Source of the DNA: an uncultured Planctomycetota bacterium
GTDB lineage: Bacteria > Planctomycetota > Planctomycetia > Isosphaerales > Isosphaeraceae
Assembly (NCBI GenBank): GCA_963737655.1
Contig: CAVTTN010000002.1
Span: 4,832,001-4,896,000, forward strand
Length of the DNA: 64,000 bases
Direction of reading: 5' to 3'
Shown here: one piece after another, positions 47,246-63,821 of the stretch
Layout: every line of letters begins with the position of its first letter
How positions within the stretch are numbered: the stretch's first letter is position 1
Made by a program: the position numbers and the translations under genes
The notes under the pieces: generated by a model
Databases searched by the model: none
Told to the model about the DNA's origin: nothing
The model's input: only the letters and a program-made list of their open reading frames with translations

Positions 47246-48412
47246 ATGAGACGCGCCGTGATCGTCGAGGCCGTCCGCACGCCGATCGGGCGGGCCTCGG
47301 CCGACAAGGGATACTTTCGCGACGTCCGCGCCGACGAGCTCTCGGCCGGGCTCGATGAACGCGCTGATCGGGCGCACCGGGATCGACCCGAAGCTGATCG
47401 AGGACGTCCGCTGGGGCTGCGTCCAGCAGCAGGGGGAGCAGGGGTTCGACGTGGCCAGGATCGCCGCGCTGATCGCCGGGCTGCCGGTCGAGGTCGGCGG
47501 CGTGACGATCAACCGCAACTGCGCCAGCAGCCTCCAGGCGATCAACGACTCGGCCATGAGCATCGCCGCCGAGTGCGAAGACGTCCAGATCGCCGGGGGC
47601 GTCGAACACATGGACCACATCCCCATGTCCAAGGATTACAACCCGAGCCGCTCTTGTTCCGGAAGAACAGCGAGGCGATCAACCACATGGGCCTCACCGC
47701 CGAGTACCTGGCGATGAAGTACCGCATCCCCCGGCAGAAGCAGGACGAATTCGCGCTGAGGAGCCACCTCCTTGCGGCGAAGGCCACCGACGCCGGCCTG
47801 TTCCTCAACGAGATCGTGCCGACCTACGGCCGCGACGACGCCGGCCACAAGACGAAGCTGACCACCGACCAGTGCATCCGCCGCGATTCGTCGATCGAGG
47901 CCCTCGCCGCGCTGCCCCCGGCGTTCAACCCGGCCGGAGGCTCGGTCACGGCGGGCAACAGCTCGCCGATCAACGTCGGGGCCGCCGCCCTGCTCGTCAT
48001 GTCCGAGGACAAGGCCAGGGAGCTCGGCCTCGAACCGCTGGCCCGGGTGAGGTCGATGGCGGTGGCGGGCGTCGATCCCTCCGAGATGGGCATCGGCCCC
48101 GTCCCGGCCACCCACAAGGCCCTCAAGCGGGCCGGCCTCTCGCTCGACGACATCGGCTGCATCGAGCTCAACGAGGCGTTCGCGGTCCAGGTCCTCGCGG
48201 TGATGAAGCTGCTCGGCCTCAAGGAGAAGGACGAGCCCAGGATCAACGCCAGAGGGGGCTCGATCGCCATCGGCCACCCCCTGGGAGCCAGCGGAGCCCG
48301 GATCACCACCACGCTCCTCCACCGGATGCGCGACGAAGGCCAATCGCTCGGCCTGGCCACCATGTGCGTCGGCCAGGGGCAGGGCGTGGCGACGATCTTC
48401 GAGCGGGTGTGA
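47246..48412 (+). CDS. fadA: Acetyl-CoA C-acyltransferase (thiolase); compensating frameshifts near 47350 and 47650
   Basis: VRTPIG; INRNCASS in the alternate frame (47355-47717 ORF); TAGNSS, NEAFA, GHPLGASG, MCVGQGQG. Confidence 0.9.
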   Translation: MRRAVIVEAVRTPIGRASADKGYFRDVRADELSAGLDERADRAHRDRPEADRGRPLGLRPAAGGAGVRRGQDRRADRRAAGRGRRRDDQPQLRQQPPGDQRLGHEHRRRVRRRPDRRGRRTHGPHPHVQGLQPEPLLFRKNSEAINHMGLTAEYLAMKYRIPRQKQDEFALRSHLLAAKATDAGLFLNEIVPTYGRDDAGHKTKLTTDQCIRRDSSIEALAALPPAFNPAGGSVTAGNSSPINVGAAALLVMSEDKARELGLEPLARVRSMAVAGVDPSEMGIGPVPATHKALKRAGLSLDDIGCIELNEAFAVQVLAVMKLLGLKEKDEPRINARGGSIAIGHPLGASGARITTTLLHRMRDEGQSLGLATMCVGQGQGVATIFERV

Positions 48413-48873: not shown

Positions 48874-49278
48874 GTGTCCACGTCCCGCAGCTCGGTCCGC
48901 TGGAACTCCCGGCTCGTCGGAGCGGCCTTCGCCCTCCTGACGCTGGCGAGCCTCGCGCCCGACGCGGCTCGAGCCGGTTGCGTGCATCCGGCGACCGAGG
49001 GGGCGGACCACCTGGACCTGCTCCGAGCCGCCGGTTCGCTGGGCGATGCGCCCGCGATGCCGAGACCGGACCCCGGGGGATGCACCGGGCCGTATTGCTC
49101 GAGCCGATCCGATCCGCCGCTCGGGCCTTCCGCCGCCTCGTCCCCGCGGGTGAGCCAGTGGGCGGTCCTGGACCCGCCGCCTCCTCGGATCGCCCGGGCT
49201 TCCTTCCCCCGCCGCCGAGATGGCGGCCGGGCGAAGCCGATCCTCGCGGCCGAAGCGATCTTTCATCCTCCGCGATGA
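48874..49278 (+). CDS. Small secreted Cys/His/Pro-rich protein ending IFHPPR
   Basis: Signal peptide (ARA-GC), CTGPYC, C-terminal HPPR; upstream of the DUF1559 operon. Confidence 0.65.
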
Positions 49279-49691: not shown

Positions 49692-50651
49692 ATGATACTT
49701 CGTGAATCGCGGCGCGGTTTCACCTTGATCGAGCTCCTCGTGGTGATCGCGATCATCGGCGTCCTGATCGCCCTGCTGCTGCCGGCCGTCCAGGCGGCTC
49801 GTGAGGCCGCCCGCCGGGCCCAGTGCACCAACAACTTGAAGCAGATCGGCCTGGCGGCGCACAACTATCACGACCGGGTCGGCGCCCTTCCCGGGGCCGA
49901 ACTGGCCCAGGGCGTGACGAGCTTCTCGGCCCTGTCGCACCTGCTCCCCGGCCTGGAGCTGGGGAATCAGTACAACGCCCTGAACTTCTCGCTGCCGAAC
50001 TCGGACCCCTCGAACGCGACCGTGGCGTTCGTGGCGGTCTCGTCGTTCATCTGCCCGTCGGACGTGAACAACTCGGCGCTGGCCTCGATCGGGGCGCAGA
50101 CCAACTACATGGCCGACATGGGGAGCTGGATCGTCTGGATGTCGGCGACCGGGCCGAACGTCGGCCTGATGCCGCCCAACGGCGTGTTCTACGGCAACAG
50201 CGCCACCCGGTTCGCCGACGTGATCGATGGGCTGTCCAACACGGGGTTCTTCAGCGAGCGGATCCTTGCCGACGGCAACAATGCGGTCGTCAGCCCGATC
50301 GCCGACGTGTTCTTCAGCCCGGCGGCGCCGACGACGATCGACGACGCCGTGACGTTGTGCCGGGCGTTGGACGTCAACAACCTCTCCAACCAGTTCCCGC
50401 TGTTCATGGGGGCGCCCTGGGTCAACGGCCAGCACGTGTTCCTCCACGTGACGGGCCCGAACACGCGGTCGTGCGGCTTCTTCGCCGCGCTCCGCGCCGT
50501 GATGCCCGCCAGCAGCCGCCACCCCGGGGGGGTGAACGTGCTGATGGGCGACGGCTCGGTGCGGTTCATCAAGGATGGGATCAGCGTCCCGACGTGGCGG
50601 GCCCTGGGCACCGTCGCCGGGGGCGAGATCGTCAACCAGGGCGAACTTTGA
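49692..50651 (+). CDS. DUF1559 prepilin-type (PulG-like) protein
   Basis: [61 protein letters not shown]. Confidence 0.95.
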
Positions 50652-50669: not shown

Positions 50670-51068
50670 ATGACTCGCGCCCTCCGCACGGCGGTCGCCG
50701 CGACCCTGGCCCTGGCCGCGCTCGTCGCGGCCGGGTGCTCGGAGCGGATCGCCGCCACCCCGCTGGACTCCACCCGGGCGATGGACTCCCTGAAGGCCGC
50801 GCTCGAGGCGTGGAAGAAGGGGGAGCCCGCCGACGCCCTGAAGAGCGGGTCCCCGCCGATCGTCGCCCAGGACCTCGACTGGCAGGGCGGGGCGACCCTC
50901 GTCGATTACGCGATCGACGGCCCGGGGGACAGGGTGGATTCCAACCTGAAGGTCCCGGTGAAGCTGACGCTCAAGGCCAGGTCCAGGTCCGGCAAGGACG
51001 TGACCAAGGCCGTGAAGTACCTCGTGACCACCAGCCCATCCATCACGGTCTTCCGGGCCTTCCCCTGA
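50670..51068 (+). CDS. Putative lipoprotein
   Basis: Lipobox VAAG-C; typical partner position after DUF1559. Confidence 0.8.
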
Positions 51069-51110: not shown

Positions 51111-52499
51111 ATGAATCCGTCCCGATCCCTCGCCGCCCTGGCCGTGGCCTGCGGGCTGGCCTCTCCGTCGGTCGCCTCGGCCGAGGGCACCCTGCTCGCG
51201 CCGCTCTCGAATGAGGACGCCTGGAAGGCGCTCCCCCCGGCGGAGGCCGGCGCCGGCCTCCCTTTGCCGTCCTGGGCCCGGATGCTCGCCCGGTCCCTGC
51301 CCCGGACCACGGCGGCCCTGCTCCAACTGGACCTGGCGCAGCGATCGAAGAACCCGCTCGACCCGAAGCTCCGCGCGGCGATGCGCCACGTCGCCGCCCG
51401 CGCCAACGGCTCCTCCTATGGCGAGGCCTGCGCCGAGGCCGACGCCCGCCGCGCCGGCCTCGCGGCTTCGGCGATCGCGGCCCTCGCCCGGGGCGACCTC
51501 TCGGGCTTCTCGGCCGAGGACCGGGCCGCCCTGGAGTTCGCCCGCAAGATGACCGTCGAGTCGTCGAAGGTCACCGACGCCGAGTTCGCGGCCCTGGTCC
51601 GGGGGTTCGGCGAGAAGAAGGCCGCCGCGATGGTCTTGACGATGGCCTACGCGAACTTCCAGGACCGCCTCCTGATCGTCCTGGGCGCCCCCGTCGAGGA
51701 GGGCGGGCCGCCGCCCCCGGTCGAGGTGGCATTCCGGCCCGAGGTGCTCGCGTCGCGGAAGGCGCCCGCCTCCCCGCCGACGATCTCCGACCTGCCCCGG
51801 CCCTCGGGCAAGGACGTCGTCGAGGACGACGACGGCTGGGAGGCCGTCTCCTACGCCCGGCTCCAGGAGAAGCTGGAGGAGCAGAGGAGCAAGCCGACCC
51901 GGCTCCGCGTCCCCGCGATCGACGAGGTCAAGTCCGGCCTGCCCCCGGGCGCCTCGATGCAGGGCGAGCGGGTCGTCTGGAGCCTCGTCGCCTTCGGCTA
52001 TTGCCCGGAGCTGGCCGTCCCGTGGGAGGCCGTGATGTGGATCAACGGCGAGGAGAACGGCCGGCGATTCGACCGCGCGTTCGGCCTCGGCCTGTTCTGG
52101 ATCGTCACCCGGACGATCGACTGCCCGTACTGCATGGGGCACGTCGAGATGAACTGGGAGGTCATCGGCATGAAGCCCGAGCAGATCGCCGAGAGGAGCC
52201 GGGCCCTGGCCGGCAAGGATTGGTCGAGCTTCCCGCCGGAGGAGCAGAGGGCGTTCGCCCTGGCCCGCAAGCTCACGGCGACCCCGGCGAAGGTCACCCG
52301 CGACGAGATCGACGGCGCGATCAAGGACTTCGGCCGCGACCCGGCGGTCAGCCTCCTGACCTACGTCTGCCGGTGCAACTACATGGTGCGCGTCTCCAAC
52401 GGCTTCCAGCTCTCGCTGGAGCGGGACAACGTCTTCTTCGACTACTACAAGGTGAAGCCGCCGACTCCGGCCGGGCCGGGCGGCGAATCGCGGCGATGA
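51111..52499 (+). CDS. Exported AhpD/carboxymuconolactone decarboxylase-like protein (CxxC)
   Basis: Signal peptide; two CMD-like halves ([19 protein letters not shown]). Confidence 0.8.
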
Positions 52500-52567: not shown

Positions 52568-53785
52568 ATGAAGGCGTTCTCGCGACGACTGGGCTGGGCG
52601 ATCGCGCTGGCGGCGCTCTCGGGGGCGGCGCCGGCCTTCGCCGGCGAAGGACCGACCGCGGACTCGCTCTCCGTGGGCACGGCCAGGGCGCTCGACGCCC
52701 TCTGGCCCGGCCACCCCGAGGCGATCGACATGCTGGCCGACATCCTCATCAAGGGCGAGGAGATGGGGGGGGCCGACGGCTGGTTCCGCAAGGCCCCCTC
52801 GCGGACCCGATTCGACTGGGGCGCGACCCGCGCGGCGCTGGATCGGGACGGCGACGGCTCGGTCACCCGGGCCGAGTTCGGGGGCCCCGACGCCGACTTC
52901 GCCCGGCTCGACCGCGACCGGGACGGCCGGCTCTCGGCGGCCGACTTCGACTTCTCGGCGCGCCCCTCCGGGCCGCCGGCCGGCTCGATCCTCCTGGTCC
53001 GGGCCGACCGCGACGGCGACGGCCGTCTGACCCGCGACGAGCTCGACCGGTTCTTCCGGGACAACGACCGCGAGGGCCTGGGCTTCCTCTCGCTGGCCGA
53101 CCTCCAGGAGGCCCTCTCGACCGCCCCGGGGCCGGGCGCCTCCTCGTCGATCCCGACGCGGTCGGTCCTGCTCAAGAGCTTCTTCCGGGGCGAGCTCGGC
53201 GCCTGGCCGCCCGGCCCCCCGCTGGACGCCCCGGCCCCCGACTTCACCCTCAAGGCGGCCGAGGGGGGCGAGGCCGTCTCGCTGTCGAAGCTCGTGGGCC
53301 CGAAGCCGATCGTCCTGGTCTTCGGCAACTTCACGTGCGGGCCGTTCCGGGGGCAGGCCGGCAACCTCCAGAAGCTCCACGCCCGCTACAAGGACCGGGC
53401 GGAGTTCCTGATGGTCTACGTCCGCGAGCCCCACCCCACCGACGGCTGGAGGATGGAGAATAACGACCGCGTGGGGGTGGCGGTCCGCCAGCCCCGCGAC
53501 GCGTCCGAGCGGCTCGAGGTCGCCCGGTCGTGCGGCCGGACCCTCAAGCTCGGCTTCCCGATGCTCGTGGACACGATGGACGACGCGGTCAACAATGCCT
53601 ACAGCGGCATCCCCAGCCGGCTCTACCTGATCGACCGGGGCGGCAAGATCGCCTTCAAAAATGGCCGGGGGCCGTTCGGATTCCGGCTCGCCGAGCTGGA
53701 GCAATCGCTCCTGCTGCTCCTCCGCCAGGAGGCGACCGCCGCCGGACCTCCGGCCGACGGCGATCGACCGCCCGGCGGGCGATGA
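52568..53785 (+). CDS. Exported EF-hand plus iodothyronine deiodinase-like redoxin protein
   Basis: [29 protein letters not shown]-hand loops; [37 protein letters not shown]. Confidence 0.85.
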
Positions 53786-53836: not shown

Positions 53837-56378
53837 ATGATGCATCCCCGATGGTCCCTCGCCGGCCTCCGCCTCGGGCTCGCCCTCCTGCTGGTCGCGC
53901 CCTGGACCTGGGCCGGGCCAGGATCTGAGGACCTCGCCGATCCGGAAGGCCGAGACGCCCGCCCAGGCGGCCCGCAGGGCGCTGGACGAGTCCTGGCCCG
54001 ACCACCCCGAATGGCTCGACCAGTACACCGACATCCTCAACGACGCCGGCAGCGGCCCCAACGACGGCTGGTTCCGCCGGGCCCGGTCGCAGACCCGGTT
54101 CGGCTGGGGCGCCGTCGCCGGCCGGCTCGACGGCGACCACGATGGCGCGATCTCCCGCAAGGAATTCCCGGGCACCGACCGCGACTTCGCCCGGCTCGAT
54201 CGCGACCGCGACGGGGCCTTGACCCGCGCCGACTTCGACTTCCCGGCCAACAGCGCCCTGAACGCATCGCCGGGGTCGCTCCTGATGTACGTCCTGGACG
54301 ACGACGGCAACGGCAAGGTCACCCGCGAGGAGATGGAGGCGTTCTTCAAGAAGGCCGACGGCGGCGACCTCGGCTTCCTCTCGCTGAACGACCTCCAGGA
54401 GAACTTCACCACCCGCCCGAAGACATCGGGCCTGCCCGACCCGGGCCCCCCGTCGAAGGAGACCCTCATCCGGGGGCTGTTCCGCCGGGAGATCGGCTCC
54501 CTCGAACCCGGCCCGTCGCTCGACCAGAAGGCGCCGGACTTCACCCTCAAGACCGTCGACGGCAAGGGGGAAATCACCCTGTCGAAGCTGGTGGGGCCGA
54601 AGCCGGTGGTCCTGGTCTTCGGCAACTTCACGTGCGGGCCGTTCCGCAGCCAGGCCGGGAACGTGGAGAAGCTCTACCAGCTCTACAAGGACCGGGCGGA
54701 GTTCGTGATGGTCTACGTCCGCGAGGCCCACCCCACCGACGGCTGGAGGATGGACAGCAACGACGCGGTGGGGATCACCACCGCCCAGCCGAGGACGTAC
54801 GAGGAGCGGGTGGCGCTGGCCCGGACCTGCGGCAAGAGGCTCTCGCTCGGGTTCCCGATGCTCGTCGATGGGATCGACGACCCGGTGGGCAACGCCTACA
54901 GCGGGATGCCCAGCCGGCTCTACCTGATCGACCGCGACGGCAAGGTGGCCTACAAGAGCGGCCGGGGCCCCTACGGCTTCCTGCCGGCCGAGCTGGAGCA
55001 TTCGCTGGCCCTCCTGCTCCAGCCGTCGGCCGAGCCCTCGGGCCATGCCGAGGCTCCCGGGCCGACCCCCCCCGTCCAGCTCGCCCGTCCGGTCGAAGGG
55101 CCCGGCCCGGTGAAGCTCCTGAGCAGCGAGGAGGCCTGGAGGCGCCTGCCCCGGGTCGTCGAGGGCGGCCATCCTCCGCTGCCCAACTGGGCCCGGGCCA
55201 CGGCCCACGCCCTGCCCCAGACCACCGCGGCGATGCTGGAGCTGGACCGGCTCCATCGGACCGAGAGCCCGCTCGGCCCGGCCCTCCGCGGCAAGATGCG
55301 CTGGGTCGCGGCCGACACCAACCGCTGCGCCTACGGCCGGGCCACGGCCGAGGCCGACCTCCTCCGCGCCGGGATCGACCGGGCCGAGATCGACGCCCTG
55401 AAGGCGGGCCCCCGGCTCTGGCCGGAGGCCGAGCGAACGGCCCTGGAGTTCGCCTCGAGGATGAGCCGCGACGCCTCCGAGGTCACCGATGGCCAGGTCG
55501 CCGCCCTGATCCGCGCCCACGGCGAGGAGAAGGTCGTGGCGATGGTCCTCCTCCTGGCCGCCGCCAACTTCCAGGACCGCCTGGTCATGGGCCTGGGGAC
55601 CCCTCTGGAAACGGACGGGCCGATGGCGCCGGTCGCGGTCCGATTCGCCAAGGACGGCCCCCCGCCGCTCGTCCCGAACCGAGGCAAGCCCGAAGACTGG
55701 CGGGGCCCGCCCGTCCCCGACCGCGTGGACGATCCCGAATGGGCCGTCCTGGACTTCGACGACCTCCGCAAGGGCCTGGACTCGCAGAAGAACAACGCCG
55801 GGCGGATCCGCGTGCCCTCGCCCGAGGAGGCCGTCGCCCACCTCCCGGCCGACTATCCGAAGCCGAAGTCGCCGATCCGGATCAAGTGGAGCCTGGTCGT
55901 CTTCGGCTACCAGCCGAGGCTGGCGGCGGCGTGGTCGTCCGTCATGAGGGCCTTCGACTCCGATGCCCACCTCGACGACGTCTTCGGCGAGAGCCTCTTC
56001 TGGGTCGTCACGAAGTCCATCCACTGCTTCTACTGAATGGGCCACTCCGAGATGGTGCTCGCGGTCGCGGGCCTGGACGCGGAAGCCCTGGACAAACGGA
56101 CCCGGACCCTCGCCTCGGGCGACTGGTCCACCCTGCCGCCTCGCGATCGCGCCGCCTTCTTCTTCGCGAAGACGCTGGCGCAGGCGCCCTGGGAGATCCG
56201 CGACGCCGATCGGCAACTCCTGATCGAACACTTCGGCCCGGAGAGGGCCGTCGACGTGATCTGGCAGTCGAGCTGGTGCAACTACATGACCCGGGTCGCC
56301 GACGCGTTCCAGCTCCCCCTGGAGCGAGAGAACGTGTTCGCCCCCCCACCGGCGCCCAACCCAGGGGCCAAGCCCTGA
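53837..56378 (+). CDS. Putative selenoprotein: signal peptide, EF-hands, deiodinase-like domain and AhpD-like domain with CxxU (UGA 56034-56036); frameshift near 53915
   Basis: IHCFY-UGA-MGHSEM aligns with [12 protein letters not shown] of paralog 51111-52499; homology continues in-frame (WCNYMTRVADAFQLPLERENVF). Confidence 0.85.
56037..56073 (+). promoter_or_regulatory. Putative bacterial SECIS hairpin
   Basis: ACUCCGAG-AUGGUG-CUCGCGGU hairpin with outer GGCC/GGCC; GGU at +18 from the UGA. Confidence 0.6.
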
Positions 56379-61097: not shown

Positions 61098-62124
61098 GAG
61101 TCTTGACCCTTAAGGGATCACTCGACGGCCCCCGGGGCCTGCGACCCTGGGGGGTCCGGGACTTCCGGGAAATCCACGGAAGAAAATCGGGTTGGGCGGT
61201 GTCTGCGGGCGGCTTGCGAGCGGCAATGCGCCGATGTTTTGAGATTTGCGAATTTACATTCCATTAACTTGAACTATTGCACAAGTTTCATTTTCTATAG
61301 AAAATCGCAATCGCTGTTTTGTCAGAAGTTGACTACACTTTTCCCCGAAAAACGCGCCAAAGGGCTTTTTTCGTAGGGTTTTCGGGCGCGCAGTCACTGT
61401 TGCCGAGCCATGTTTTCTGATTTGAGAATCCGTTCGGTTTTGACCCGCAACGATCGACTTATAAGAGACTTGTGTCGATCGAATTTTTGAGCTTCACCGC
61501 CGACTTTTGCCGGAAATGGTGGATCGCTCGGGGGTGCGCGTGAGGGGTCGTTCGGAAGGGGCGGTGGGCGTGGTGGCGGGATTGGGTGATCGGGGGTGGG
61601 GGCGGCCCTCGATGATGGGATCACGGGGGCGGCGGCGTTGGGGCTCGGGTCCGATTTGCGAGGGGGAGGGTGGCCGTGATCGATGGGGATGGATCGGGTC
61701 GGGATGTCGGCTCGGGGGCCGGGGCGACATCCTCTTGGGGCCGGGCCAGTCCCGGAACCATTCGCGATATTTTATAATCTCGATGTGATTCGGGCCATTC
61801 GGATCAAGGACGTCGAGAGAGAACTTTTCCATGATTGCTTGAAGGATCTCACGACCTTCGACTTATTTGGCCCGGATTGCCGGATTGCCGCGGTCTTCCG
61901 AAATCGTCCCTTTCTTGTGAGGCGTGAGGGTCCTGGCTTTCCCAAGGCGAGCCGCGGGCGTCCTTTGCGACGATTTCTCGATCCGGGAGGGGTCTCGGGG
62001 TCCGTCTGGTGTTGGCAGTGGCTGGACGGCGACGGTCCGATCGGTTGGAATGAGGCCGCGATCGACCCGGGTTCGTGGCGAACGAGCGGGGCGGGGTCTT
62101 GCCGATCCGCCGGGAGAGGGTGAC

Positions 62125-63821
62125 GTGGCCTCCGAGAACCTTCCCGCCCTCTTCCGGGCGACCTGCGATCGCCTCGGCCCTCGGGCGGCGGTTCGGTTCC
62201 GGCGCGATGGCCTGTATCGTGACCTTTCCTGGGACGATTACCGCCGACGGGTGGATGAGGCGGCGGCGGGCCTGGTGGCCCTGGGGGTGAAGCCCGGGGA
62301 TCGGGTGGCGATCCTTTCGGAGAACCGGGTCGAGTGGCTGGAGGCCGATCTGGCGGTGCTCTCGGCCGGGGCGGTGGGCGTCCCCTTGCATGCCCCGCTG
62401 TCCGCCGGGCAGGTCGCCTATCAGGTGGCCCATAGCGGGGCCGTCGGGGCGATCGTGAGCGGGCCGGGTCAGGCGGCGAAGGTCCTGGAGGCGAGGGATC
62501 AGGCCCCGGAGCTCCGCTGGATCGTCGCGTTCGACGCGATCGGGGCGGGCGATCCGGGGATTCGCGCCCTTTCGTGGCTCGGATTGGGCGGCGAAGGCCG
62601 GCGGGCGGGGCCGGCGGCGAGGTTGGACGTGGATCGGAGGATCTCGGCGCTCTCTCGCGGCGACCTGGCCTCGATCCTCTATACGAGCGGCACCACCGGC
62701 CCTCCCAAGGGCGTGATGCTGTCTCATGGGAACTTCCTCTCGAACGCCGAGACCACGGCGGTCATCTCCGGGTCGGTGCCGACCGACGTGGTGTTGAGCT
62801 GGCTGCCCTATAGCCATGTTTATGCCCGCACGTGCGACCTCTACGTGTTCCTGGTGGATGGTGCCACGCTGGCCCTGGCCGAGTCGGTCGATGCCCTGAT
62901 GGTCCATCTGGCCGAGGTCCAGCCGTCGTGCATGTCGTCGGTGCCGAGGTTCTATGAGAAGGTCTGGGGCAACCTCCAGGGGGTCCCCGAGGCGGCCCGG
63001 CCGAGGGCGCTTTGGGGGATTTTCGGGCCGAATGTCCGCCATTTCTCCTCGGGGGCGCCCCGTTGCCGAGGCCGGTGGCCGAGGGGTTCCACGCCTGCGG
63101 GATGACCTTGATGGAAGGCTACGGGATGACCGAGTCGTCGCCCGTGATCAGCTTCAACACGCCGGGGGCCGTGAAGGTGGGCTCGGTCGGCCGGCCGATC
63201 CCGGGCGTGGAGGTCCGGATCGCCGAGGATGGCGAGATCCTCACCCGGGGGCCTCACGTGATGATGGGTTACTGGCGAGATCCCGACGCCACGGCGAGGA
63301 CGATCGTCGACGGCTGGCTGCACACCGGGGACGTGGGCCATCTGGATCCCGACGGCTACCTGTTCATCACCGATCGCAAGAAGGACATCCTCATCACCTC
63401 GGGCGGCAAGAACGTCGCCCCGAGCGAGCTGGAACGGCTGATCGTGGCCGATCCGACGTTCGATCAGGCGGTGGTCTTCGGGGACGGCCGGCCGTTCGTC
63501 GGGGCGCTGGTCGTGCCGACGGCCGAGGCGATGGAGGCCGAAGCGGCCCGCCTCGGCGCCCCCCTCGATCGTGACGGCGAATTCCTCGCCCCGGGGCCGA
63601 TCGTCGATGCCTTCTTCGCCCGGGTCTCGACGGCGATGCAGGCCGTGAGCGGGCCGGAGCGGGTGAAGGCGATCCTCGTCCTCGGGCGGCCCCTGAGCGT
63701 CGATCGCGAGGAGGTCACGGCCACGCTCAAGGTCCGCCGGCGGCACGTCCTGGCCGAATTCGCCGACCGGATCGAGGCGCTTTACCAGAGCAAGGCCGCC
63801 TCTGCGGCCCTGGACGTCTAG
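62125..63821 (+). CDS. Long-chain fatty acid-CoA ligase (AMP-binding); frameshift near 63055
   Basis: YTSGTTGPPKG, LPYSH, SGGAPL reconstituted across the shift, EGYGMTE, WLHTGD, DRKKD. Confidence 0.9.

Follow-up and report, generated by a model that had tools for sequence, protein, structure and literature searches.

A probable selenoprotein of Planctomycetia that joins a deiodinase-like domain to a predicted sestrin-like double-AhpD domain, and the operon in which it lies

AhpD-like (CMD-like) proteins with a CxxU motif (TIGR01926/COG2128, PF02627; NF041238) and deiodinase-like proteins (NF038285, PF00837) are known as bacterial selenoproteins, each separately, as an earlier note on this DNA had correctly stated (PMC1088965, PMC2398784, PMC13188914). 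The bacterial deiodinase-like proteins have received no function since their first report, in which a redox role was only proposed (PMC1088965), and the reductant of the oxidised mammalian deiodinases is an open question, with no physiological one known for Dio2 (PMC11592359, PMC9141512). As for the AhpD fold, Sestrin2 contains the AhpD-like unit twice, active in one half and degenerate in the other; it reduces alkyl hydroperoxides, its AhpD-like site acting on cumene hydroperoxide but not on H2O2, and the comparisons in the structure paper are with dimers of single-repeat bacterial proteins only (PMC4674687). Bmp8 debrominates a pyrrole via cysteine oxidation to a disulfide (PMC5577590). Here we describe a gene at positions 53837 to 56378 of a 64,000-nucleotide stretch (the window) of an uncultured Planctomycetota bacterium (contig CAVTTN010000002.1, positions 4,832,001 to 4,896,000). 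Its intact product very likely is, by way of selenocysteine (Sec), one protein of ~845 residues, with an EF-hand/deiodinase-like half (N-half) and a predicted sestrin-like double-AhpD half (C-half). The architecture of a deiodinase-like domain and a double-AhpD domain with Sec and a selenocysteine insertion sequence (SECIS) appears to be new. The fusion is absent from the table of a 119-family inventory, the accessible parts of which mention neither planctomycetes nor EF-hands (PMC13188914), is not named in the passages on fusions of the Global Ocean Sampling survey (PMC2398784), and has no counterpart in a planctomycete selenoprotein table, which holds no AhpD or deiodinase entry (PMC4807772); in the literature covered, mostly open-access papers, no description of the fusion or the family was found.

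The in-frame TGA (56034-36, context IHCFY-TGA-MGHSEM) stands in the column of the second Cys of C-F-Y-x-M-G-H. The Cys paralog two genes upstream reads IDCPY-TGC-MGHVEM at the aligned site (TGC at 52131-33), and the frame past the TGA runs for 113 further codons to a stop at 56376-78, still similar to the Cys homologs; both this alignment and the similarity over 113 residues had been claimed in the earlier note and were borne out. When the homologs were aligned at this column, as that note had proposed, the codon was TGA in 42 gene copies from 39 loci (counting the window), TGC in 24, and TAA or TAG in none (copies among the fetched loci, deduplicated on 90 nt around the codon). The true terminal stops in 41 of the Sec genes were mixed (TGA, 24; TAG, 10; TAA, 7), and the TGA column is thus beyond chance. 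Note that the column was confirmed directly in the fetched loci, and that ~18 more distant genomes were counted by the '1 TGA' flag alone; the 'TGA' match of G081 turned out to be a later stop in a Cys gene, which was counted accordingly. Among the best 150 representatives of a profile search (1.84 billion), 69 end exactly at C-x-Y and 41 contain C-x-Y-C-x-x-H, while none does both and none carries U. Gene callers therefore cut the Sec form, which agrees with the expectation that standard annotation would split the gene, and the family is largely hidden.

The ATG that directly follows the TGA (56037) would allow another reading, namely two translationally coupled genes, the first ending CFY-stop and the second starting at this ATG, and database pieces that start at MGH exist (P0113, P0121). 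We give this reading practically no credence: the break would fall inside the CxxC helix, the Cys homologs are continuous (the 24 DNA copies and the 41 representatives mentioned above), the stop is never TAA or TAG, no purine-rich stretch precedes 56037, and silent-site constraint is seen only in the TGA copies. P0113 and P0121 also end at CFY, and each probably comes from the middle of a tandem double-AhpD gene that has two Sec codons.

The silent-site constraint lies in codons +8 to +11 (CTC GCG GTC GCG; Leu-Ala-Val-Ala), which are one codon each in 42/42 Sec copies; these positions are 4- to 6-fold degenerate, and other invariant residues (Thr-8, Gly+2, Leu+25, Ala+26) use 3-5 codons. The hairpin GCUCGC-GGUC-GCGGGC formed there is exact in 40/42 Sec copies (the other two show a compensatory outer pair and a mismatch, respectively) and occurs in 0/24 Cys copies, including eight that encode the near-identical peptide M-L-L-x-V-A-G-L; the Cys paralog of the window has GGTC at the same offset without the stem. 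Since the folding energy is unremarkable (z, -1.28) and alone weak, the evidence for the hairpin is its conservation. The earlier note was right that a hairpin follows the UGA, but the loop that is conserved, GGUC, lies at 56063-66 between the arms GCUCGC and GCGGGC, 9 nt beyond the GGU loop that the note had proposed. That GGU, at 56054-56 (offset +18 to +20, where the paralog has GAA), is not conserved, with CTG, not GTG, being the commonest codon in the Sec copies. GGUC is also the loop of the SECIS of E. coli fdhF. The hairpin would be bound by SelB. A G in the small apical loop is a common feature of bacterial SECIS elements (PMC1088965).

The active repeat of the C-half was matched in 107/401 Planctomycetia genomes. 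selA was searched in the 106 of these besides the genome of the window (G000), with five that had no listed match places dropped, and was matched in 54/57 TGA-carrying genomes; the carriers with no selA match were G006 (76% complete), G297 (83%) and G320 (95%). In the 44 non-TGA genomes, selA was matched in 15 and not in 29, and 29/32 of the selA-less genomes carry Cys (non-TGA) forms only; these counts treat related genomes singly, and kin are not independent. The UGA/Cys column, the invariant hairpin specific to the Sec copies, and the co-occurrence with selA all argue for Sec at the UGA, as first claimed, and from these comparisons we take Sec at this column of the family to be almost certain.

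The same in-frame fusion was confirmed in DNA at 12 loci besides the window, across Planctomycetia. When the active-site residues of the deiodinase and AhpD domains are given in this order, the fusion is Cys/Sec in G000 (the window), G009, G143, G096, G083 and G086, Sec/Sec in G183, G194, G393, G284 and G155, and Cys/Cys in G051 and G359; to judge by matching open-frame lengths and positions, a further 14 loci would be Cys/Cys and a further one Sec/Sec. Seven database fusions (714-739 aa) have in-frame hydrophobic N-termini and end at CFY, and in P0130 the domains are fused in reverse order. In other genomes the two domains are adjacent separate genes, in either order, or lie apart, and in a quick unrooted tree of the AhpD domain only, the fused and separate forms, and the Sec and Cys forms, are intermixed. 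The fusion of these domains and its export, both put forward in the earlier note, were thereby upheld, the former at the 12 other loci and the latter by the N-termini of the database fusions. A hydrophobic N-terminal stretch was also found in 28/36 truncated stand-alone homologs, vs 0/5 cytoplasmic window controls, and the fusion protein is likely exported, as far as such predictions go. The Sec-type domain is also found fused to other, unrelated N-terminal domains (P0160, P0166 and P0180).

In the window, the hydrophobic N-terminus of the fusion starts at ATG 53837, in a different frame from the main open reading frame (ORF). The GC content at third codon positions is 0.92 over the first 25 codons when read from this ATG, and 1.0 over codons 30-50 of the main frame, and the main-frame similarity to intact homologs begins near 53916; a frameshift was therefore placed at ~53915-53950. 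It is either an assembly error or a recent mutation. A thiolase and an AMP-dependent ligase of the window (47246-48412 and 61924-63821) are each split over two frames as well, which suggests indel errors of the assembly.

The N-half belongs to the deiodinase-related family NF038285 (400.8 bits from 54219 onward; cut-off, 250), of which Cys and Sec forms occur, and it is here fused to the double-AhpD domain. Three canonical DxDxDG/DxDxNG loops are present, as is the NFTCGPF motif of the earlier description. Its best solved relatives by sequence are mouse Dio3 (1e-20) and Dio2 (3e-19), and Dio3 and Dio2 are the best by fold as well (VIA Z 17.5 to Dio2), with further matches to the 1-Cys peroxiredoxin AhpE and to Bcp (Z ~15); a signal-like N-terminus and EF-hands stand where Dio has its membrane anchor. 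The proton-relay residues of Dio2 are Thr, Sec/Cys, Tyr, Glu, His and Trp (PMC11592359). Among the 36 sequences of the N-half family, T226, C/U227, Y254, H259 and W264 are found in 36/36 and E257 in 35/36, the Ser127 position is Asn in 21 and Ser in 15, Pro replaces the second relay His (Dio His182/219) in 35/36, and there is no proximal Cys. A Sec form of the deiodinase domain also exists, FG[SN]xT-TGA-[GP]P[FY], and its hairpin differs from that of the AhpD domain: 96% of its cells are paired, 3/7 pairs are compensatory, and none of 500 shuffles attained its covariation score; slid controls were far lower, and relatedness inflates such covariation scores. This Sec form, the sestrin-like two-repeat architecture and the leader ORF described below go beyond the earlier note.

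The AlphaFold model of the C-half (predicted local distance difference test score, 94.4; predicted template modelling score (pTM), 0.93) overlays human Sestrin2 colinearly (Z, 26.3; root-mean-square deviation, 3.1 A; 291 aa; 16% identity), and when 48,161 chains were searched without bias, with the fusion model as query, Sestrin2 ranked first. The single-repeat AhpD-like structures gave Z 13.5-14.7 against the C-half, with Bmp8 (Z 14.0-14.2) tied with five others (Z 13.9-14.7), and an AhpD-like dimer (2PRR) overlays the C-half in the same way as Sestrin2. We therefore predict, on the basis of the models, that the C-half has a bacterial sestrin-like architecture, a single chain with an active and a degenerate AhpD-like repeat. 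The active site here is the CxxU of the C-terminal repeat, unlike the N-terminal single Cys125 of Sestrin2, and Sestrin2 was not matched at E<=1 by a 54-sequence profile of the C-half; because of the active half being second, the 16% identity, the lack of a sequence hit, and the like overlay of the dimer 2PRR, independent duplication is possible. A more distant double-AhpD subfamily (NNCxYCMGHQ; L064, L053, L061 and L115) has the motif in the first repeat, that is, in the sestrin-like orientation.

By sequence, every solved relative of the C-half with E<0.01 has the AhpD fold. C305, Y307, C/U308 and H311 are invariant (54/54), with His at +3, not +4; in the N-repeat, the Cys position is Ser in 13/54 and the His position Ala in 53/54, and there are additional Cys residues around the active site (C312 in 37/54 and C389 in 43/54). 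All 54 members match TIGR01926 at E<=0.001 (best, 5e-16), and the C-half passes no curated NCBIfam cut-off (TIGR01926, 43.3 vs 81.8 bits; NF041238, 29.7 vs 175), its motif being CFYUM vs the CFYUT of NF041238. With the AhpD-like CxxU selenoproteins it shares CxxU in the AhpD helix-turn-helix, a downstream SECIS with G in the small loop, and Cys orthologs; it differs from them in its length of ~420 aa, its two repeats, of which one is degenerate, its hydrophobic N-terminus and CFYUMGH, and in being often fused to the deiodinase domain. The ESM Atlas returned only CMD-labelled clusters, mostly of Planctomycetota and one of Acidobacteriota, and a single-sequence search of the PDB with the pre-UGA C-repeat gave no meaningful match.

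As each domain is related to a thiol/selenol enzyme that strips halogens from aromatic rings (iodothyronine deiodinase and the AhpD-fold debrominase Bmp8), the pair could be an exported cofactor-free reductive dehalogenase, in which one domain takes the halogen and the other recycles it, or each handles a different halo-aromatic. The spacing C-x-Y-C-x-x-H defines the Bmp8 type. Among the PDB profile hits, Bmp8 (6OHI; 1.5e-7) was the only one of which the best stretch was the active C-repeat, and its C-M-Y-C-K-S-H has His at +3 like C-F-Y-U-M-G-H, whereas PA0269 and the AhpD of D. radiodurans have it at +4; to this may be added the Dio relatives and the nearly invariant relay residues of the N-half. 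However, PA0269 scored higher by sequence (3e-9), Bmp8 is one of six tied by fold, and Bmp8 (6OHI/6OHJ), although sharing the fold and the spacing, has a single repeat and a biosynthetic-cluster context. The C-terminal Asn of Bmp8 is catalytic, and the residue aligned with it is Thr in 52/54. The Pro at the second relay His and the missing proximal Cys of the N-half also speak against dehalogenation, as does the lack of any halogenase or haloaromatic-catabolism gene among 114 neighbouring ORFs (the Pfam-scanned part of 126 other predicted neighbouring ORFs at 26 loci). We regard this explanation as rather unlikely.

The explanation to which we lean, at about even chance by analogy, is an exported, tethered thiol/selenol relay that would reduce bulky oxidants outside the cytoplasm by the logic of AhpC/AhpD. 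In this relay, C305/U308 would cycle between the thiol/selenol and the selenenyl-sulfide, the single active-site Cys of the deiodinase-like domain (Sec elsewhere) would exchange with this pair, electrons would come from a DsbD/CcdA-type membrane protein encoded elsewhere, and oxidants such as organic hydroperoxides would be reduced. The activity of the Sestrin2 site on cumene hydroperoxide, the fold matches of the N-half to AhpE and Bcp, and a DsbD_TM gene present elsewhere in G000 speak for it. That the two domains act in one pathway is likely; that the reduction of peroxides or other oxidants is the main job is put forward more tentatively, at a little under even chance, and the 'self-contained redox relay' of the earlier note remains an inference. 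The mycobacterial AhpC/AhpD couple is cytoplasmic and lipoamide-fed, and differs also in being not fused and in having no Sec and no EF-hands. What it has in common with the present protein is the pairing of a peroxiredoxin-like thioredoxin fold with an AhpD dithiol (PMC4674687).

Several observations weigh against such a relay. The model of the whole fusion (pTM, 0.57) has a disordered linker at residues 358-374 and predicts no fixed contact between the domains. The deiodinase-like domain was found in 159/401 genomes, vs 107/401 for the AhpD partner (the thresholds being different), and the fetched flanks of some Sec-AhpD genes (e.g. L116, L117, L120, L121 and L130) lack a deiodinase gene; the pairing is therefore not obligatory. 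DsbD, thioredoxin reductase and peroxiredoxin genes were not found among the 114 neighbouring ORFs. As assembled, the gene of the window is broken by the 5' frameshift. Lastly, of the selABCD genes, for which the earlier note had suggested a check, selA, selB (adjoining selA) and selD are present in G000 at full length and free of extra stops, apart from the in-frame TGA that selD itself carries, but tRNA-Sec (selC) was not found there with Rfam, ARAGORN, a pattern search, blastn, or nhmmer built from the selC of relatives. tRNA-Sec was present in 9/10 relatives tested, including all three congeners. The earlier note had named a genome devoid of Sec machinery as refuting its reading, and this applies to G000 in part.

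The last two observations raise the question of whether, in G000 only, the gene is a relic, a reading that overlaps with the others: tRNA-Sec would have been lost, the UGA would terminate, the frameshift would be real, and the Cys paralogs would do the work. In its favour, the G000 site syntenic with the selC of one congener holds a different hairpin element, a second copy of the operon (L063) has an internal deletion, G320 carries TGA without a selA match, and the selA match of G086 contains stops. We nevertheless hold it to be distinctly unlikely, given the intact selA, selB and selD, the TGA kept in selD and in a SelW-like gene, and the exact SECIS. Moreover, the assembly is 87.7% complete, its main contig has no terminal overlap and unequal GC-skew arms (~4.1 vs 3.5 Mb), two unrelated genes of the window are also frameshifted, and the position of selC varies even among congeners. 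Sec is judged likely to be still decoded in the organism of the window. An argument for an assembly gap from missing essential tRNAs was discarded, since the initiator-tRNA motif is absent also in 4/4 good relatives and a Lys(UUU) pattern was seen in only 4/11. The Rfam hit over the cut-off in G000 was tRNA-Leu(TAA), not tRNA-Sec, and a Sec-type formate dehydrogenase was not found among the four molybdopterin matches in G000, none of which has an internal stop. Regarding other selenoprotein genes, selD (CAG-U-AGK) lies on the minus strand (L018), with the small SelW/Rdx-like gene (C-A-L-U) directly upstream (G000:C2:3221374 and 3221679), and the hairpin of the latter, CCGUCA-GUU-UGACGG, is of the same type as the SECIS of the deiodinase domain. 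G320 (95% complete) and G086 are possible relics after the loss of Sec decoding.

The operon is headed by a short leader ORF that resembles CruR, a copper-sensing stalling upstream ORF in which CXXC and RAPP are 45 apart (PMC9426467): it stands first in the operon and has an export signal, with a fixed spacing between its dithiol and a Pro-Pro motif at the C-terminus. The search pattern allowed a spacing of 36-76 residues between CxGxxC and the [FY]HPP near the stop, and the spacing found was 55 in 16/20 leaders and 56 in 4/20. In G000 there are three leaders, all heading operons of this family, vs 35 DUF1559 N-termini. From this analogy the leader family is a candidate for a new ribosome-arrest sensor specific to these operons; the CxGxxC...FHPP leader would tune the operon to a thiol-reactive signal (a metal or an oxidant) via ribosome stalling. 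Leaders were found at 48874-49278 of the window and at L051, L053, L054, L059, L063, L064, L114, L116, L118, L122-L124, L126 and L128.

This design, specific in G000 to these operons, is also what would be expected if the system served periplasmic homeostasis of copper or another thiophilic metal, with the leader sensing the metal and the CxxU/Cys sites binding, reducing or handing on the metal, or keeping metal-binding thiols reduced, and the extra Cys residues around the active site (C312 and C389) would fit. The resemblance is nevertheless incomplete: the motifs are CxGxxC and FHPP, not CxxC and RAPP, the spacing is 55-56, not 45, and the leader gave no match to Pfam (including PF11162/DUF2946, at E<=1) or NCBIfam. 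The downstream genes encode redox enzymes, not copper transporters, and among the scanned neighbours one RND pump and two CusB/HlyD-like hits were seen, but neither a TonB receptor nor Sco, PCuAC or a copper ATPase. We consider a role in metal homeostasis quite unlikely, and retain the thiol/selenol relay as the working explanation.

Whatever the substrate, the fusion, which recurs and occurs in both orders, points to a candidate partner for the deiodinase, one that is predicted to have the whole two-repeat architecture of sestrin, and it offers soluble natural Cys/Cys, Cys/Sec and Sec/Sec versions in a family that is common in Planctomycetia; the leader adds a candidate arrest-peptide sensor. 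A bolder and, in our estimate, unlikely combination would be a class-wide, exported, one-chain reductive dehalogenase/redox machine of planctomycetes, in which a sestrin-fold selenoenzyme is attached to the deiodinase and recycles it, selenium can occupy either or both sites, and a new dithiol sensor that acts through ribosome stalling switches the operon. If true, it would assign a first function to the bacterial deiodinases, suggest that an AhpD/sestrin-type protein can serve as the reductant of a deiodinase, and offer a bacterial model of the sestrin architecture.

The genome of the window comprises 7.63 Mb (68.7% GC) in three contigs, and the named relatives returned for the fusion protein are Isosphaeraceae planctomycetes (Singulisphaera and Aquisphaera). 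A Sec form is carried by the cultured Aquisphaera insulae (L080), in which selABCD is complete. The fusion is the last gene of the apparent operon, after the leader ORF, a DUF1559 protein, a lipoprotein, a Cys double-AhpD protein and a stand-alone EF-hand/deiodinase-like protein (Table 1). The Cys double-AhpD protein is 43% identical to the fused double-AhpD domain. In the stand-alone deiodinase-like protein, EF-hand Pfams score above the cut-off; lanmodulin (16.7 vs 135 bits) and XopAW (29.2 vs 120 bits) were rejected as identities for its EF-hands, being far below their cut-offs.

Table 1. Features of the operon and of the fusion gene, in positions of the window.
Feature	Position	Strand	Family match or remark
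Leader ORF, 134 aa: signal-like N-terminus, CxGxxC, 55 residues, FHPPR-stop; candidate ribosome-stalling sensor (CruR/CutF-like)	48874..49278	+	
DUF1559/prepilin-type N-terminal protein, H-X9-DG C-terminus	49692..50651	+	PF07596 1.6e-48, PF07963, TIGR04294
Small predicted lipoprotein (LAALVAAGC), DUF1559 cassette partner	50670..51068	+	No family match; recurs in related operons
Cys paralog of double-AhpD domain, hydrophobic N-terminus, C-P-Y-C-M-G-H, TGC 52131-33	51111..52499	+	CMD 0.003
Stand-alone EF-hand + deiodinase-like protein, hydrophobic N-terminus, FGNFTCGPF	52568..53785	+	NF038285 450.7 bits (cut-off 250), PF00837 6e-28
Predicted signal peptide of fusion, out of frame with remainder	53837..53915	+	One indel at ~53915-53950
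EF-hand region + deiodinase-like thioredoxin-fold domain, Cys form (FGNFTCGPF ... YVREAHPTDGW)	53955..55022	+	NF038285 400.8 bits
Double AhpD-like domain: degenerate N-repeat (C/S-x-Y-G/A/S), active C-repeat (C-F-Y-U-M-G-H)	55113..56378	+	Predicted Sestrin2-like architecture
In-frame TGA, very likely selenocysteine	56034..56036	+	UGA/Cys column, homologs
Bacterial SECIS upper hairpin GCUCGC-GGUC-GCGGGC	56057..56072	+	Loop starts 26 nt after UGA

The DUF1559 gene is a common planctomycete cassette gene and recurs across many related operons. In the second operon copy of G000 (L063, G000:C2:5978000-5990000), the DUF1559 gene is frameshifted, and the N-terminal piece of the AhpD protein runs into the C-terminal piece of the deiodinase, which is the internal deletion mentioned above. 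L064 (G000:C2:5848000-5858000) is a third operon of leader, DUF1559 protein and lipoprotein in G000. In the Pfam scan of neighbours, NMT1-type ABC transporter genes were found beside the operon in 3/26 loci, and FG-GAP repeat genes, mostly with UnbV_ASPIC, adjoin it in 8/26 loci (L051, L052, L058, L113, L114, L124, L126 and L129).

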